A stretch of DNA of 64,000 nucleotides from the IMG/VR virus record IMGVR_UViG_2898907183_000003, positions 5,759-69,758 of that record, one strand, 5' to 3'. The notes below the pieces were generated by a model. That model had not been told where the DNA came from, searched no databases, and worked only from the letters and a program-made list of their open reading frames with translations. Shown here piece after piece: positions 4,795-38,982 of this stretch; the first letter of the stretch is position 1, and each line of letters begins with the position of its first letter. The DNA is from a virus (lineage: Duplodnaviria; Caudoviricetes). The position numbers were made by a program, and so were the translations under genes.

Positions 4795-5013
4795 ATGAAG
4801 ATGTACAAGGATTGTATTGAAGAAGTGCTAACTGCGGCAGAGGTAGACAGGAAGTGGGGAAAATCACATGGTACCACTAAGGTGTACTGTCAACGCGGCA
4901 TCTTCACCGATAAAGAGGCCCGTAAATCCGGCGGTACATGGCTTGTCACCTATAGCGGCGCGGTTAGAGTCTTCGGCAACCCACCGGAAAGGGGTGACGA
5001 ATCTGAAAATTGA
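4795..5013 (+). CDS. Small winged-HTH DNA-binding protein (excisionase/MerR-like fold)
   Basis: VLTAAEVDRKWG...EARKSGGTWLVT pattern; AT-rich insertion between helicase and primase. Confidence 0.7.
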   Translation: MKMYKDCIEEVLTAAEVDRKWGKSHGTTKVYCQRGIFTDKEARKSGGTWLVTYSGAVRVFGNPPERGDESEN

Positions 5014-6010
5014 TGTCCGTGCCGAACTCGAATCCTTCCCGTGGAAACGAGCCACATGGACACCCGACAAGTTAACCGCGGCCTCCCCGTTTCGCTACGA
5101 CGGCACGCCGTCCTTCTACGTATGGCTCGCGAACAATCCCGTAACCGGCGCGCGTGCTGGCGATTGGGGCGACTACGGCGCGACCGATCCCGAGTACCGA
5201 CGCGGTGGCATCGTGAAGCTCCTCGCGTTCCTGCGTAACGAAACCGAGGAGGAAACGGAGGAGTATCTACGATGGAAGTACGGGGAGGCAACGGGAGACG
5301 CCGAGAACCTAACGTTAGACCTATCGGGAGTCCTCCGATTGCCTGAGCGGAGGCAGCCGTTGGACCCACGAATACTAAACGCATGGGACTGCGAACATCC
5401 ATACTTGTGCCTACGCGGAATAAGTCCGGAGGTACAGAAGGAAATGCGGGTCGGATACGATATAAAAAGAAAGGCGATAACGATTCCGTGGTTCCTTCCG
5501 GACGGTTCACTTGGCAACGTCAAGTTCCGTCGCGTCGATTCTAAAGCGTTCTGGTACGTCAAAGGAGGCTGGCCCATTCGCGAGCTCGTTTACGGAATAG
5601 ACGCAATCTACCGAAAACGAGCGAAGGTGGCCGTCCTGGTTGAAGCGGAAATTGACGCGATGTACGTCATGACCGCGGGTTTCCCGGCGGTTGCGGTCGG
5701 GGGGGCGTTATTCAGCGAGGAGAAGGCGGAGGTCATCCGGAGGAGTCCGATCGAACGGCTGCTCATCGCGACGGACAACGATGAGGCAGGAAAGAAGTTG
5801 CGAGAGCAGGTAATCGAGAAGATGACGGGATACTGCGAGTTGCTGTCGGTGGAGTTTCCGGAGACGTATAAGGACGTCAACGAGATCACGGACTTGGACG
5901 AGTTGCGTGGGTACATAGAAAGAGCTGCTCCTGTCAATTGGTACAAGTTTCCTCTTTTGTCGCAACAAGTCGACAAGTCTCGCGGGACAGATTCGACAAA
6001 GATTTGCTAA
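4994..6010 (+). CDS. DNA primase (TOPRIM)
   Basis: VLVEAEIDAM, IATDNDEAG, KDVNE TOPRIM motifs; start is GTG 4994 or CTG 5003. Confidence 0.88.
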   Translation: MTNLKIDVRAELESFPWKRATWTPDKLTAASPFRYDGTPSFYVWLANNPVTGARAGDWGDYGATDPEYRRGGIVKLLAFLRNETEEETEEYLRWKYGEATGDAENLTLDLSGVLRLPERRQPLDPRILNAWDCEHPYLCLRGISPEVQKEMRVGYDIKRKAITIPWFLPDGSLGNVKFRRVDSKAFWYVKGGWPIRELVYGIDAIYRKRAKVAVLVEAEIDAMYVMTAGFPAVAVGGALFSEEKAEVIRRSPIERLLIATDNDEAGKKLREQVIEKMTGYCELLSVEFPETYKDVNEITDLDELRGYIERAAPVNWYKFPLLSQQVDKSRGTDSTKIC

Positions 6011-32456: not shown

Positions 32457-32840
32457 TTGACGATGGCTAAACGCTTATCACCCGAACAGTACATCGCAAT
32501 CGGATATCTCGCACAACCGCACAATGGCGGTAAGACGATCGCAGAGATCGCGAAGGAATGCGGAGTATCGGAGCGTACGATTTACAACTGGAAGAATGAC
32601 GAGACATTCGAGAGGGAGCTTATCGCGCAGATGAGGCGGAATGTCCGCGATATGATTCCGGCCGTCAACCGGGCGATGTTCGATACCGCGATAAAAGACG
32701 GGAACGCGGCGGCCGCGAAATTGCTCCTGCAACAAGTTGGATTGCTTACGGATAAGGTCGAGGTGGAAACGAAGACTACCGCTGAGGTACCGGACCTTGA
32801 CGAACTCAAACGGATGGTCGCTGAAATGGACGAGGAATAA
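32457..32840 (+). CDS. terS: Terminase small subunit (phBC6A51-type HTH)
   Basis: KTIAEIAKECGVSERTIYNWKND, GNAAAAKLLLQ; upstream of terL. Confidence 0.8.
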   Translation: MTMAKRLSPEQYIAIGYLAQPHNGGKTIAEIAKECGVSERTIYNWKNDETFERELIAQMRRNVRDMIPAVNRAMFDTAIKDGNAAAAKLLLQQVGLLTDKVEVETKTTAEVPDLDELKRMVAEMDEE

Positions 32841-32966
32841 CGCGCTATTAATGTAGGTTCGCGCTGGGTCGGTTGCGTATCGTTTCATACGACCGCAATT
32901 TTGTCCGCTGCATGCCTCCGGCGCGCGACCCCTCCGGAAATTTTCGAAACAAACGAAAAGGGCCCA

Positions 32967-33521
32967 TCACTGAGCCCTTGCGTTGATATATCGGTATAGC
33001 GTTGTCTTGCCAAGCCCAGTCGCCTCCGTTATCTGCTCGATGGTGTACCGTTTGCTTGCGTACATGTCGAGCGCGAGAGCTACCTTATCCGCATTCTTTG
33101 ACGGACGACCACCCTTTCTACCGCGTGCTCTAGCGGCTTCCAGACCGGCGTGCGTGCGCTCTACGATGATGTCCCGTTCCAACTCGGCTATGCTCGCCAT
33201 CATGCGGAAGAAGAACCGGCCCATCGCCGTGGATGTGTCGATGTTGTCGCGGATCGAAACGAAGTCGACGCCGGCCTTTTCGAAATGCTCGGCGAGTTCG
33301 ATCAAGTGTTTCGTTGAGCGCGATATCCGATCCAGTTTGTACACGACAACCTTATCGCCTGGGCGGAGGACCTTTAGAAGCTCCTCTAGTTGCGGGCGTT
33401 CTTTCGTTTTACCGGTCATTTTCTCGTGATATATCCGGTCGACACCGTATTTGTTCAATACGTCAATCTGCGCGTCGAGGTTCTGGTCTTGCGTACTAAC
33501 GCGGGCATATCCGAAGATCAT
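32967..33521 (-). CDS. Small serine recombinase (resolvase/invertase family)
   Basis: IFGYARVSTQDQ, RPQL, KLDRISRS, ERTHAGLEAARARGRKGGRP, C-terminal HTH. Confidence 0.93.
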   Translation of the reverse strand: MIFGYARVSTQDQNLDAQIDVLNKYGVDRIYHEKMTGKTKERPQLEELLKVLRPGDKVVVYKLDRISRSTKHLIELAEHFEKAGVDFVSIRDNIDTSTAMGRFFFRMMASIAELERDIIVERTHAGLEAARARGRKGGRPSKNADKVALALDMYASKRYTIEQITEATGLGKTTLYRYINARAQ

Positions 33522-33968
33522 CGCGATCGCCTCCGTTTTCTTTATGCACCAATCGTACCATAAACGGTGTCGTCGTTCAATATCGGGAATTTGATTTTGG
33601 AACGGGTTATGGGGCGGTGAGAATGCGATAAGACCGTTGGGCAAGCGCGGAGCTGTACGGTTTCCCGTAAACGACCGTTTTCGGAACGGTGAGGAGTGCC
33701 AGACCCCAAGGCACCCCTCGCAGGTCCCGTCGTCAGGCCCCGGATAAATCCGCGTATCAAAAATTAACTTTGACTTTATTGCGATAAAGTGAATCGAGAG
33801 CAGACGCAAGGCCACCGAAATGCCTAATCGGTGGTCTTTTTGTGTTTTCGATTCTATGCGCTAAAGGCGGTTCAGCTTGCGATTCGCGACCGCAAGTTAC
33901 AGCGATCTCCCGTCGCGCTATGGACCGCCTGCTTCACCTTCTGACGGGACAAAAAGATAACGGGAGAG

Positions 33969-34679
33969 ATGCGGTTGAGTATCGAAAACACACGCGAAGA
34001 GTTCATGAGATTGCGCGGACAATTTCTCGAGCAACTACCGAAAAGTTGTCAGAACTGCGGTAGAGAGGACGATTTACACATTCATCACATTGTACCGTTA
34101 GCACTCGGCGGGCGTAACGTGCTCTCTAATCTCGCAACACTTTGCGGCGAGTGTCACGGTAAGGTTCATGGCCTAAAAATCCGGGAATCACACGGGAAAG
34201 CCGTTAAGGAAGGTCGTATTAAAGCGGCACGCCCCGGTAAATGGGGCGCGGGGAAAGTCCCGTACGGGTACGATGTCGACCGATTCGGCGAGATGGTCAT
34301 AAACGAGGAAGAGGCGCAGATAATACGTCTCATGTACAAATGGCGATACATCGACAATTTAACGTGGCCCCAGATTACGGAGATTCTCCGTGAGATGGCG
34401 ATCCCAACAAAAACGAACGGTGAATGGAGCAATGCGACATTACACCGTATTTTTAATAACCCGTTGTACCGCGGCGAGTACTATCTACAGGGCGAGTTTA
34501 TTGGCTACCTAGATAATCCGATCCTTGATAAAACGCTTATTGACGCGGAAGACGAATACAAACGAAAGTACACGCAGCCTAACGGCAAGCTATACGTTTT
34601 CCGGTGTAAATCGTTGAAATTCGGCCACAAGGCGGAGGGAGGCGGTAAGCGTGGCATGGGTGAACGGGCGTTGGCTTGA
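33969..34679 (+). CDS. HNH endonuclease fused to a large-serine-recombinase 'Recombinase' DNA-binding domain
   Basis: CQNC...HIHHIVP...GG.N..SNL..LCGECH; then GKWGAGKVPYGYD...INEEEAQIIRLMY...W....L..IFNNPLYRG. Confidence 0.82.
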   Translation: MRLSIENTREEFMRLRGQFLEQLPKSCQNCGREDDLHIHHIVPLALGGRNVLSNLATLCGECHGKVHGLKIRESHGKAVKEGRIKAARPGKWGAGKVPYGYDVDRFGEMVINEEEAQIIRLMYKWRYIDNLTWPQITEILREMAIPTKTNGEWSNATLHRIFNNPLYRGEYYLQGEFIGYLDNPILDKTLIDAEDEYKRKYTQPNGKLYVFRCKSLKFGHKAEGGGKRGMGERALA

Positions 34680-36399
34680 TCGGGACTCCCGTCAAGAACT
34701 CATCGACACGCTACGTCTCGGACGCGACAAACTCCGTAAGAAACTCGACGCCGGGACTATCACCGCAGACGAAGCGGTACAGCTTCGCGCGTGGTTAACG
34801 GAGCTTAAGCGTTTGGAGCGCATCCACCGCGCCGAGACCGACCTCCTCTACTTCGCGCACGAGTATTTTGGCGAGGTCTATAATCCCGGTAACTCCGGTA
34901 ACTGGATACCGGTAACGATTTCGGAGGCCCCGGAGTTTCATCACGAATTATGCGAGATCATGAACACGGTGTCAAACCGAGAGTTTAACGCGAAAATCGC
35001 ATGGGCGGCACCCCGTTCACACGCGAAGTCCTCGTACCTTTCAAAGGCCTTTCCGTTACACGAAATCGTGTTCCGGAAGCGAAAATACATCATCATCATA
35101 TCGGAGACGCCGCAGGTGTCTACCGCGAACATGGAATGGCTCGGAATCCAGCTCAAGAGCAACGCAAAACTTCGAGCGGATTTCGGGCCTTTATTGTCCC
35201 CGAAACAACAAGAGAACCCGAAGGATAACTCCTCCGAGTTCATTACGTGGGAGCCGAGAGAAGGGGGCGCGCAACATCTTCTCACGCGCGTCGAGGCCGC
35301 CTCCACCGGCCAGGCGTTGCGTGGTCGGAACTGGAACGGGCACCGTCCGGATTTGATCATCTGCGATGATCTCGAGGGCAAAAAGAACACGAACACAGCG
35401 GAACTCCGGAAAGAGATGCGCGACTGGTTTACGCAGGTAGTGATGCCGCTCGGTGACCCGACAGGCAAGAAAACGGCGTTCGTCGTAATGGGGACGATGG
35501 TCCACCCGGAGTCGCTCTTGCGATATATCATCGAGCAGCGCTCCGACTTTAAGTCCCGTTTGTTCAAGGCGGTAATCGAGCCGCCAGAACGGGGCGACCT
35601 GTGGGAACAATGCCGATTGATTTATACGGATCGCGAAAACCCGAATCGTGCAGAGGACGCGGAGGCGTTCTACCTCGCGAACAAAGAGGAGATGGACCGT
35701 GGCGCTGTAGTCCTGTGGCCCGCCGTTCAGCCGTTATGGACGCTGATGAAGTGGAAATGGGATAACGGTTCCAAGGCGTTCAATACCGAGTATCAGAACA
35801 CACCTCTGGACGAGGAAAACCAAGTATTCGTTCCCGAGCGATTTACGTATTGGGACGCTACCGATCCCGGCCGCAAGTTCCCGCACAACGAATACGACAT
35901 CTTTATGGGCGTTGACTTCGCGATGGGAAAGACGCGCGGCGACTACTCGGCGATCGTGACGGTTGCCAAACGGAAGGACACCGGAGGCATCTATGTCATC
36001 GACGCGTGGGGAGAACGGGTCCATCCCGACGAATTCCTCAAGGTTATCGTCGAAAAGGTCATGCACTACCAACCGGCGGCAATCGCGGCCGAATCGCAGG
36101 CAGCGCAAGAGTTTTTCGTTCACAAGTTGAAGGAGGCGCTTCGGGCCAAGGGGTACCCGTCGCATACGCGTGTGAAAGAGATCAAGCAAAGACAACGAAA
36201 GGAGCTCCGCATTGAAGCGCTGCTCCCAGACATTGAAAACGGAACCATTCAGTTCTCGCGCAGGCACGCGCTACTTCTCGAACAGTTCGAACGGTACGGA
36301 AGCAACTCTCATGATGACCTCCCGGACGCACTCGAAATGGCCGTGCGTGTTGCGAAGGACGGTAAAAAACAGGTAATCGACAAGCCAGCGTGGCTATAG
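34651..36399 (+). CDS. terL: Terminase large subunit
   Basis: APRSHAKS Walker A, LIICDDLE Walker B, GVDFA, HDDLPDAL nuclease motif. Confidence 0.93.
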   Translation: MAWVNGRWLDRDSRQELIDTLRLGRDKLRKKLDAGTITADEAVQLRAWLTELKRLERIHRAETDLLYFAHEYFGEVYNPGNSGNWIPVTISEAPEFHHELCEIMNTVSNREFNAKIAWAAPRSHAKSSYLSKAFPLHEIVFRKRKYIIIISETPQVSTANMEWLGIQLKSNAKLRADFGPLLSPKQQENPKDNSSEFITWEPREGGAQHLLTRVEAASTGQALRGRNWNGHRPDLIICDDLEGKKNTNTAELRKEMRDWFTQVVMPLGDPTGKKTAFVVMGTMVHPESLLRYIIEQRSDFKSRLFKAVIEPPERGDLWEQCRLIYTDRENPNRAEDAEAFYLANKEEMDRGAVVLWPAVQPLWTLMKWKWDNGSKAFNTEYQNTPLDEENQVFVPERFTYWDATDPGRKFPHNEYDIFMGVDFAMGKTRGDYSAIVTVAKRKDTGGIYVIDAWGERVHPDEFLKVIVEKVMHYQPAAIAAESQAAQEFFVHKLKEALRAKGYPSHTRVKEIKQRQRKELRIEALLPDIENGTIQFSRRHALLLEQFERYGSNSHDDLPDALEMAVRVAKDGKKQVIDKPAWL

Positions 36400-36560: not shown

Positions 36561-37466
36561 ATGGGATACGAACGAAAGGGATGGTCTCATAGAGTGAAGG
36601 TCACTTTACGCGACAAAATTTCGAAAGAGACACTTGAAGAGTTGTATGTTCAGCAAGGGAGAAGCATAGGTGAGATCGCGAAGCTATGTGGTTGTGGTTA
36701 TGGAAGCATCAGCAGGTTAATGTCAGAGTACGGGATTGGAAAGAGAAGTAGTAAACAAGGATTGGCTCTACATTTCAAACGAAATACTAACTTCGATGTG
36801 GAGTTTTTCAAGCAAGAGTCCCCTGAATTCTTTTACATCTTAGGGCTGTGGGCGTCTGATGGGTGCGTGACCAAGGATGGGGGACTAAAACTGACCATGT
36901 GCGATATTGATGTGGTCGAATGGGTCAAAGAGAGGATCGGTTACAAAAACAAAGTCTTTGTGCGTATACCAACAGGATTCCAAAACGCTAAAACTACGTA
37001 CACCCTAACATTCTACAATCAGGAAGTAGCCGGAATCTTCGAGGGGTACGGGATTGTTCCGAACAAGTCTCTTACAATAAAATTTCCCAACATTCCGCGT
37101 CAGTTTATCCACGACTTTATTCGAGGGGTGTTTGACGGAGACGGAAGTATTTCTGTAGGTGTTCGATCCGACAACGGGGCTCGCACACAATCATTCAGAA
37201 TCGTTAGCGGTTCCCTAGACTTTGTCAAAGGAATTGAAAGAGTCCTCGAGGAGGAACTGAACGTCAGGGGTAACAAGATTAGTGCTGATAAAAGAGGGGC
37301 TGGCGTTTACGAGTACAGGGTTTCTCGTAGACAAGACGTCGCAAAGATCGCAGCGTGGTTGTATCAAAACGATGCTTTCGGGATGAAACGAAAGAAAGAG
37401 AAAATGTTACAGGTCTTAAGTGACGCTCGCCAAGAAAGGAGGTATGAAGTTGGGAAAGCTGTTTGA
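36561..37466 (+). CDS. Free-standing LAGLIDADG homing endonuclease (probable start GTG 36594)
   Basis: YILGLWASDGCV and FIRGVFDGDGSI motifs; N-terminal HTH; lower GC. Confidence 0.9.
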   Translation: MGYERKGWSHRVKVTLRDKISKETLEELYVQQGRSIGEIAKLCGCGYGSISRLMSEYGIGKRSSKQGLALHFKRNTNFDVEFFKQESPEFFYILGLWASDGCVTKDGGLKLTMCDIDVVEWVKERIGYKNKVFVRIPTGFQNAKTTYTLTFYNQEVAGIFEGYGIVPNKSLTIKFPNIPRQFIHDFIRGVFDGDGSISVGVRSDNGARTQSFRIVSGSLDFVKGIERVLEEELNVRGNKISADKRGAGVYEYRVSRRQDVAKIAAWLYQNDAFGMKRKKEKMLQVLSDARQERRYEVGKAV

Positions 37467-38982
37467 TACGGGGGCGCAGTTTCCTCCGGCTAATGCCATT
37501 GAAAGACTAGCAAAATACGAGCGAGGTAGACGAATATTCGAGGGAAAGCCGTACGAAGTTTATGAACGCGCTACCGAACTTCTCAAGGAGACACCGCACG
37601 CCCCTCAGTTACAAAAGCTATACATCGCAGTCAATATCATCGACGTACTCATAACAAAAGCTGCCGACCTGATGTTTGGGGAGCCGCCCAGCTACGAATC
37701 CGGTCTGCCCGATGATTCGCCGCAACAGCAACGCCTCAACTCGATAGTCGAGGAGAACGATTTAAATCAAATCGGTCATGAGATCGTCATTGGCGCGGGC
37801 ATCCGAGGTGACGCGTGGATCAAAGTCTTCTACGACAGGCGCGGTGACTTCTCCGAGGTCCCAACGGATGACAACGGAACGCCACTCGTCGACCTCCCGG
37901 CACCCGAACCGATCATCGAGGCGGTCGACCCCTCGTACGTGTTCCCGGAGCTTTCACGCGGCTCCCGCAAGCGGTTCAAGGCGGTGAACATCGCATGGGT
38001 CGAATGGGTCGAGACACGTAACGATGAGATTCCGTATCTGAACGTCGAGCGCCACGTTCCCGGTTTTATCATGTACGAGCGCTATCGGTTGCAACCGAAA
38101 GACGTGGACAATACGTACGGCGCGCCGATCCAGACGTTTACGATCGGCGAGCAGGTGGAGACCGACCGCGACTCCGATATCGTCGAAACGGGCCTGACGT
38201 GGATCCCGGTTTTCCACGTTCCGTATAAGACAACGGACGACGATTGGCAGGGAATCAGCGGTATCGAGAAGCTGGAAAGCGTGTTGGCCGCGATTAACGA
38301 CCGGCTCGTGCAGATCGATTACATCCTGTGGAAACATTCGGACCCGACGGCCTACGGCCCCGATTTAGGTGATATAAACGTCCGGATATCCGGCCGTTAT
38401 ATTCCAGTGGGAAAAGACGACCAAACTCCCGGATACATGACGTGGGATTCGCAGCTAGACGGCGCGTTCAAGGAGCTTGATTACCTCATCGGTCTCGTGT
38501 TCCAGATGAGTGAAACGCCGCAATGGTTGTTTGGGACCACGTTGACTCCCGATAGCGGCGGAACAGGCACGTCACACACCGATGGCGTCGCGATCAAGGC
38601 GCGGTTCATGCCGATCCTCTCGAAAATCAAGCGGATTCGCGTACACGTTGACCGCGCGTTCCGTGACGCGTTGTGGACCGCAATGGAGCTCGAAAACTTC
38701 GCCAACGAAGGCGTCGAGGGCTTCACAAAATATGAACCGGTATATCCGACAATCGCATGGAAAGACGGGATCCCGCGCGATGAGAAAGAACTCGCGGAGA
38801 TTATGCAGATTCGCACCGGCGGCAAGCCGACGATAGACGTTCAAAGCGCAATCAAGCGCATGGACGAAGTGGACGACGATAAGGCCCGCGAGATTATGAC
38901 GCGGATTGAAGAGGACGAGAAAACGGCGAATGGATTCGTCGACTCGTCCATTTTTAATGGCGGTGTGGGGAGCGATAGCTAA
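37450..38982 (+). CDS. Portal protein (SPP1 gp6-like)
   Basis: Position after terL, about 510 aa, acidic C-terminus; TTG start 7 nt after AAAGGAGG. Confidence 0.85.
   Translation: MGKLFDTGAQFPPANAIERLAKYERGRRIFEGKPYEVYERATELLKETPHAPQLQKLYIAVNIIDVLITKAADLMFGEPPSYESGLPDDSPQQQRLNSIVEENDLNQIGHEIVIGAGIRGDAWIKVFYDRRGDFSEVPTDDNGTPLVDLPAPEPIIEAVDPSYVFPELSRGSRKRFKAVNIAWVEWVETRNDEIPYLNVERHVPGFIMYERYRLQPKDVDNTYGAPIQTFTIGEQVETDRDSDIVETGLTWIPVFHVPYKTTDDDWQGISGIEKLESVLAAINDRLVQIDYILWKHSDPTAYGPDLGDINVRISGRYIPVGKDDQTPGYMTWDSQLDGAFKELDYLIGLVFQMSETPQWLFGTTLTPDSGGTGTSHTDGVAIKARFMPILSKIKRIRVHVDRAFRDALWTAMELENFANEGVEGFTKYEPVYPTIAWKDGIPRDEKELAEIMQIRTGGKPTIDVQSAIKRMDEVDDDKAREIMTRIEEDEKTANGFVDSSIFNGGVGSDS

Follow-up and report, generated by a model that had tools for sequence, protein, structure and literature searches.

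Free-standing phage HNH homing endonucleases such as I-HmuI, I-TevIII and mobE consist of an HNH nuclease joined through a linker to a separate DNA-binding module of the NUMOD, HTH or zinc-finger type. They occupy intergenic slots beside essential genes, are patchily distributed among close relatives and have mosaic flanks. Nuclease genes standing at the boundaries of genetic exchange have been described as 'HEG islands' (Barth et al. 2023, PMC10448857). HNH proteins are also found within the terS/terL cluster beside the packaging site, as in HK97 gp74, the staphylococcal phi12/phiSLT HNH and the Skunavirus HNH; these are about 100-120 aa long, have no DNA-binding domain and are conserved together with the HK97-type terminases of cos phages. 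Large serine recombinases (LSRs), among them SPbeta SprA and the LI/A118, Bxb1 and phiC31 enzymes, contain a serine catalytic domain, the C-terminus of helix alphaE, a GKW..PYGY linker, a Recombinase domain (RD), a zinc ribbon and a coiled coil. Finally, res-resolvase modules of the Tn3/gamma-delta type combine a small serine recombinase with a multi-block site lying directly upstream and overlapping its promoter, and P1 uses Cre-loxP for cyclisation, loxP being located within the terminally repeated DNA of the first P1 headfuls.

Here we describe a locus which combines elements reminiscent of these systems. The window, that is, the whole stretch of 64,000 nucleotides analysed (from the Caudoviricetes record IMGVR_UViG_2898907183_000003 of IMG/VR), belongs to a large prophage within a genome of 4.07 Mb (35 contigs); the prophage genes include primase/helicase, DNA polymerase A, RNR, methylases, virion genes and a lysin, and a gene for a tyrosine integrase is found about 5 kb before the window begins. 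Specifically, the plus strand carries terS (32457..32840; 127 aa, an HTH-type small terminase matching PF13022, Terminase_5 and phrog_2538), an ORF of 236 aa (33969..34679) that we call HNH-RD, terL (34651..36399; 582 aa, with a Terminase_6C/T7-like nuclease domain) and a LAGLIDADG endonuclease gene (36561..37466; PF14528, phrog_4645), which lies between terL and the portal gene (37420-38982) and the product of which has an N-terminal HTH. The HNH-RD stop and the terL start overlap by 29 nt. A small serine recombinase of the resolvase/invertase type (32967..33521; 184 aa; PF00239, HTH_7, phrog_125) is encoded on the minus strand, and a non-coding gap of 447 bp separates it from the HNH-RD start. 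The original prediction had placed a full resolvase back-to-back with the 236-aa ORF across about 450 bp, and was right on this point. Its description of the gap as repeat-rich was overstated, as only short imperfect matches occur, but the sequence which it quoted, TAAACGACCGTTTTCGGAACGG, proved to be a conserved distal block upstream of the resolvase gene. Its wording that the two genes split terS from terL is misleading, since most relatives with a window-type terS/terL pair and without either gene keep a gap of 0.5-1.2 kb. No Rfam family matched within 32800-34100 at E<=1.

The N-terminal part of HNH-RD is an HNH domain (PF01844, residues 27-67, E 2.4e-13), and residues 113-187 match the Recombinase domain (PF07508, E 2.3e-12, profile positions 1-65 of 102). 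The same Pfam scan returned no match to the catalytic serine domain PF00239, the HNH standing at the N-terminus instead, and none to the zinc ribbon PF13408, the protein stopping at residue 236; in addition, no coiled coil is present. A helix at residues 75-86 runs on into GKW..PYGY and corresponds to the end of alphaE; it is followed by the RD (about residues 88-200) and by a disordered tail (213-236). A family profile built from 23 homologues recovered the RDs of two LSRs, SPbeta SprA (9dxh, residues 151-300, E 3e-19) and the LI/A118 integrase (4kis). The AF2 model (pLDDT 81.5) displays an HNH finger, the linker helix 75-86 and an RD-like alpha/beta domain extending to about residue 200, and a Foldseek search with this model ranked LSR-DNA complexes first and also matched the Gme HNH nuclease/nickase 4h9d. 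Eleven residues (C27, N29, C30, H39, H40, N50, N54, C59, C62, H63 and H67) are invariant in the 23 family members: they include the catalytic and metal-binding residues that characterise an HNH/His-Me finger (H39, H40, N50, N54, H63 and H67) and two CxxC pairs (C27/C30 and C59/C62), which form the structural zinc site of this HNH subclass.

HNH-RD thus has in common with LSRs the alphaE C-terminus, the linker and the RD fold placed after alphaE, whereas the serine catalytic domain, the zinc ribbon and the coiled coil are all missing. The HNH replaces the catalytic domain, so that the protein would be able to cut DNA but not to exchange strands. In comparison with the known homing endonucleases, it likewise joins an HNH through a linker to a separate DNA-binding module, but this module is an LSR RD. 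In conclusion, Pfam, profile and fold agree with the original prediction of a complete HNH followed by the end of an alphaE-like helix and an LSR RD, devoid of catalytic serine domain and zinc ribbon; failure of the C-terminal domain to match PF07508 had been set beforehand as a refuting outcome, and the domain does match, in agreement with the fold. HNH-RD is therefore an HNH tethered to the att-reading RD of large serine integrases, and both sequence and model support its description as a sequence-specific-looking nuclease.

This architecture is recurrent. An exhaustive search of representatives (clusters at 50% identity) identified 16 clusters at E<1e-30 containing both HNH and RD, and re-scoring of the top 150 matches revealed many proteins of about 145 aa composed of an HNH and a shortened RD (mini forms), together with two-RD forms and RD-only repeat proteins. 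Clusters from archaea and viruses are present in the ESM Atlas, where they are automatically named 'HNH endonuclease/Recombinase domain-containing protein'. The proposal of a new sequence-specific nuclease architecture consequently holds as far as an intact HNH joined via the alphaE end to an LSR RD is concerned, but not as a one-off. Four proteins, P0084 (847 aa), P0029, P0031 and P0141, contain RD modules in tandem, two to five in number and either with an HNH or without one, which indicates that the RD circulates as a free DNA-binding module. In a sister form (L008-L010, P0010), the HNH is 51% identical to that of the window, and what follows it is a small-resolvase segment made up of the alphaE end and the HTH. 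The gene order in L008-L010 (e.g. L009:5412-6423) is a complete resolvase gene and then, directly after and overlapping it, the gene for this fusion of an HNH with a resolvase-type alphaE end and HTH (147 aa); a Terminase_2/Terminase_6N pair comes about 1 kb further downstream. Only in this context might the pairing of a resolvase with an HNH fusion be real.

In a tblastn search of 50,697 phage records with HNH-RD, no place covered at least 80% of the query; two apparent HNH+RD matches in Streptococcus phages were both inspected and turned out to be ordinary LSR genes. The mini form P0060, used as query, also found LSR RDs only, and 400 other genomes of the same class contained no full-length HNH-RD match at E<=1e-15, again only LSR RDs. 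Our literature search found no paper on an HNH-RD fusion.

Two non-coding blocks conserved throughout the clade flank the resolvase cassette, one on each side. The left block (32905..32950) aligns with bases 1-45 of the genomes of phages Tripp and Halcyone, which have direct terminal repeats (DTRs) of 378 and 377 bp, respectively (PMC4706335, PMC6256684), both genome records beginning at the first DTR base (for Halcyone, PMC6256684). Because this block aligns with base 1 onward of both phages, the left end of a terminal repeat is predicted at about 32907. The right block (33703..33790; CCCCAAGG ... AAATCCGCGTATCAAAAAT..., also written CCCCAAGG ... AAATCCGCG.ATCAAAAAT) aligns with Tripp 335-440 and spans the right edge of the Tripp and Halcyone repeats, and the corresponding edge is predicted at about 33734. 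On these alignments to two sequenced phages, we infer a prophage terminal repeat of about 830 bp (32907-33734), which would enclose the whole resolvase cassette; its sequence is single-copy in the integrated prophage. In most related loci, the CCCCAAGG motif precedes terL by no more than 3.5 kb. Repeats of the TGCATAAACG type lie inside the predicted terminal repeat of resolvase-less relatives (L114 at about 4860-5070, L001 at 5470-5720 and Tripp at 287-310) and are candidate binding sites for the small terminase or a regulator. To the right of the conserved block, on the plus strand, an inverted repeat folds into a G+C hairpin followed by a T run (33808..33848), a terminator-like element conserved in L001-L004, L096 and L114.

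The distribution of the two genes was assessed through a search seeded with the portal protein, and hence blind to both, which provided 75 distinct loci whose sequence extends 2.5 kb or more ahead of terL. HNH-RD was found in 0/75, a serine resolvase in 6/75 and a small tyrosine recombinase in 16/75, counts which are not independent, as the loci are kin to one another. The tyrosine recombinases are catalytic-domain-only proteins of 178-198 aa, usually encoded on the minus strand just upstream of terL (L127-L129, L139, L154, L161-L171, L174, L177, L183, L207, L212; Bacillus phage 268TH007 1100-1651); the predicted terminal repeat includes some of them and leaves out others. Loci L001-L007, L091 and L092 have HNH-RD but no resolvase, and L133, L136, L146, L190, L200 and L213 have a resolvase but no HNH-RD; HNH-RD and recombinase genes showed no enrichment for each other (Fisher p 0.24-0.28). 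In Brevibacillus prophages L001-L004, which carry the same HNH-RD subtype (73-75% identity) and no resolvase, the interval between terS and the HNH-RD gene after it is about 650 bp long and non-coding.

An empty allele, as envisaged in the original prediction, was found in L114, the closest terS/terL relative (terS 87% and terL 84% identical), which has no resolvase, no HNH-RD and no LAGLIDADG gene. Together with the absence from all 75 portal-related loci, this constitutes the presence/absence polymorphism, with a precise empty site, that distinguishes free-standing homing endonuclease genes. In L114 the conserved hairpin adjoins the terL ribosome-binding site (RBS), which lies about 30 bp on; therefore, the HNH-RD cassette (leader and ORF, about 33866-34650) is inserted at the terL RBS, and a separate insertion or replacement, located further left, accounts for the resolvase cassette (32951-33700).

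By comparing the window with L001-L003 and L096, it appears that HNH-RD (73-75% identity) and portal (75-78%) are far closer than terL, which is only 38% identical, also when L004 is considered with L001-L003; one HNH-RD subtype hence precedes two terL types. Comparison of terL (34651-36399) with L001:6674-8380 thus shows a clean exchange of this gene, the breakpoints of which fall at the nuclease genes. In the window, terL is bracketed by HNH-RD on one side and by the LAGLIDADG gene, absent from L114 and L001-L004, on the other. The second nuclease gene on the far side of terL is a likeness to the 'HEG islands', and by analogy the arrangement matches that pattern of nuclease genes at exchange boundaries (PMC10448857).

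The slot itself is shared. In 8 loci with HNH-RD proteins of 37-94% identity, HNH-RD is the first gene after the CCCCAAGG block and starts 76-290 bp past it, a spacing kept even where terS or other genes part HNH-RD from terL; L005 is an exception, with a tyrosine-recombinase gene between the block and HNH-RD. In relatives, this first position after the block is taken by the gene for another HNH protein in L141, for an HNH_repeat protein in L196 and L198 and for a LAGLIDADG protein in L139. In L202, a prophage of Paenibacillus amylolyticus, the same region ahead of terL contains an Acb2/Tad1-hairpin gene (L202:4761-5120; PF24729, E 1.7e-24), the product of which is an anti-CBASS/Thoeris sponge.

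Upstream of the HNH-RD start, a structured leader (33866..33968, plus strand) of about 100 nt, absent from L114, travels with HNH-RD across homologues of 38-94% identity (the window and its equivalents in L001, L096, L007 and L006). RNAalifold gave a branched fold of 20 pairs, 7 of which show compensatory changes, with the 38-45% identical L007 and L006 included. By eye, CTCCCGT can pair with the ACGGGAG Shine-Dalgarno (SD) region of the leader, and in L006 both pairing sides are altered (CCTACC with GGTAGG), features of an apparent anti-SD/SD switch. Tight translational control is typical of homing endonuclease genes. The similarity between this leader and that of the LAGLIDADG gene is weak and confined to a hairpin-like stretch.

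The resolvase, 184 aa from MIFGYARVST, has the PF00239 domain (E 1e-47) with the G-Y-x-R-V-S catalytic serine motif and a C-terminal HTH (HTH_7, E 2e-8) that define small serine recombinases. A role as prophage integrase was rejected in view of the tyrosine integrase mentioned above. Alignment of five resolvase upstream regions delineated a promoter and res-like region (33522..33700, minus strand) with proximal (about 33554-33572), middle (about 33597-33612) and distal (about 33668-33692) blocks, in register in the five cassettes. Homologues occupy the same gap in L096 (58% identity, opposite orientation) and in L200 (54%, no HNH-RD), and the blocks move together with the gene in the inverted L096 copy. 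In 7/7 loci (the window, L096, L136, L146, L190, L200 and L213; a count covering these 7, L133 and L215 not being located), the CCCCAAGG block comes immediately to the right of the resolvase gene, which falls within the predicted repeat. Five of these seven supplied the aligned upstream regions. The three-block region looks like a res site overlapping the resolvase promoter. The 8-mer CATAAACG of these blocks recurs, as TGCATAAACG repeats, in resolvase-less gaps; therefore, part of the 'res' repeats could be members of an array found across the clade, such as a set of small-terminase sites. No inverted repeats flanking an invertible resolvase segment were detected in the window or in L096, the best alignment scores (14-15) being at chance level, so a simple Hin-like inversion is not supported despite the opposite orientations.

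The resolvase and its three-block site would thus form a self-contained recombination module inside the predicted terminal repeat, independent of HNH-RD. Virion DNA would in that case bear two direct copies of the module, which is the geometry of a resolvase substrate, and recombination between them could serve circularisation or multimer resolution. Such a role is suggested by analogy with P1 Cre-loxP, as both sites would lie in terminally repeated DNA. Compared with the Tn3/gamma-delta and P1 systems, the res subsites, activity, directionality and repeat position proposed here are putative.

Taken together, the region is best read as two unrelated, independently inherited cassettes in a hypervariable stretch of a DTR-packaging temperate phage, which begins with the predicted terminal repeat and extends to terL. 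For HNH-RD, we infer an optional homing-type site-specific nuclease, to which we assign a probability of roughly 60% and the RD of which would read a conserved site close to the edge of the repeat or to the start of terL. Like the known homing endonucleases, it occupies an intergenic slot beside an essential gene (terL), is patchy in close relatives and has mosaic flanks, the homing itself being a proposal. In phages without the gene, the RD that reads att half-sites in LSRs, tethered to the HNH finger through the last alphaE turns and the GKW..PYGY linker, would bind a conserved stretch close to the edge of the terminal repeat or to the terL RBS, and the HNH would nick or cut nearby. Repair from an HNH-RD-carrying genome would then copy the cassette in with co-conversion of flanking DNA, while the RBS-sequestering leader would keep expression low. 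The cassette is probably selfish.

An HNH next to a terminase could instead assist cleavage, as the original prediction had also considered. HNH-RD would then be a packaging or end-processing nuclease, a helper of the HK97 gp74 kind that has acquired a site-recognition domain of its own and cuts or nicks for the terminase at the terminal-repeat edge. HNH helpers of terminases are known (discussed in PMC10448857), and HNH-RD, too, lies in the terS/terL cluster beside the packaging site. It is tied over a wide range of divergence to the block aligned with the Tripp/Halcyone DTR edge, adjoins or is near terL in all loci with context, and its stop/terL start overlap, as expected for an operon member, is kept in L001-L004. 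However, the gp74-type proteins are conserved with their terminases, whereas HNH-RD is optional: it is absent from L114, from 75/75 portal-related loci and from Tripp and Halcyone, which package DTR genomes without it. The 84%-identical terL of L114, present without any HNH, weakens the idea; in addition, the window terL is T7-like with its own nuclease domain, not of the HK97 type, and unrelated homing-type nucleases, including LAGLIDADG, use the same slot. We regard this role as unlikely, although it is the strongest competitor of homing. Somewhat less plausible still is a broader version, in which HNH-RD proteins, a widespread nuclease class that reuses the att-reading domain of integrases (or, in sister forms, a small-resolvase HTH), act at the repeat edge alongside a Cre/loxP-like, RecA-independent res-resolvase circularisation, the whole being a new end-processing and cyclisation toolkit instead of selfish cargo.

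A phage-versus-phage or host-directed exclusion nuclease, one that cleaves competitors at a particular site, such as a related terminal-repeat edge or an att-like site of LSRs, but does not copy itself, would be in keeping with the sporadic distribution, the intact nuclease motif and the anti-defence gene that holds the slot in L202. No partner immunity or defence genes accompany HNH-RD, however, and the same features fit homing, the two roles overlapping; we consider exclusion improbable as the main function. Decay into a large serine integrase remnant or a nuclease-dead DNA-binding regulator might account for the loss of catalytic serine domain, zinc ribbon and coiled coil, but scarcely for HNH catalytic and zinc ligands invariant across homologues of 27-75% identity, nor for an architecture stable in about 16 clusters, in a prophage which has its own tyrosine integrase. 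We give this reading very little credit, and no more to the original model in which resolvase and HNH-RD make up one two-part mobile unit, a recombinase with an RD-targeted nuclease. The two genes are adjacent in the window and L096, and the sister HNH fusion directly follows a resolvase in L008-L010. Against a unit, each gene is found without the other in many loci, L114 has neither, their relative orientation in the window is not that found in L096, the DNA lying between the two cassettes is conserved across the clade and occurs in cassette-free phages as well, and their DNA-binding domains are unrelated. That model was to fall if the genes did not co-occur, and, since they do not, it is largely refuted on its own terms.

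In conclusion, the label 'recombinase family protein' is the wrong name for HNH-RD proteins. If these proteins cut at sites read by the RD, they would be natural nucleases with integrase-type specificity, and, as structures now explain how RDs recognise DNA, it could be possible to re-target them. The locus also offers a clean example of nuclease cassettes bracketing terL at genetic exchange boundaries, and a resolvase with its site within the predicted terminal repeat would provide a testable answer to how temperate DTR phages circularise.
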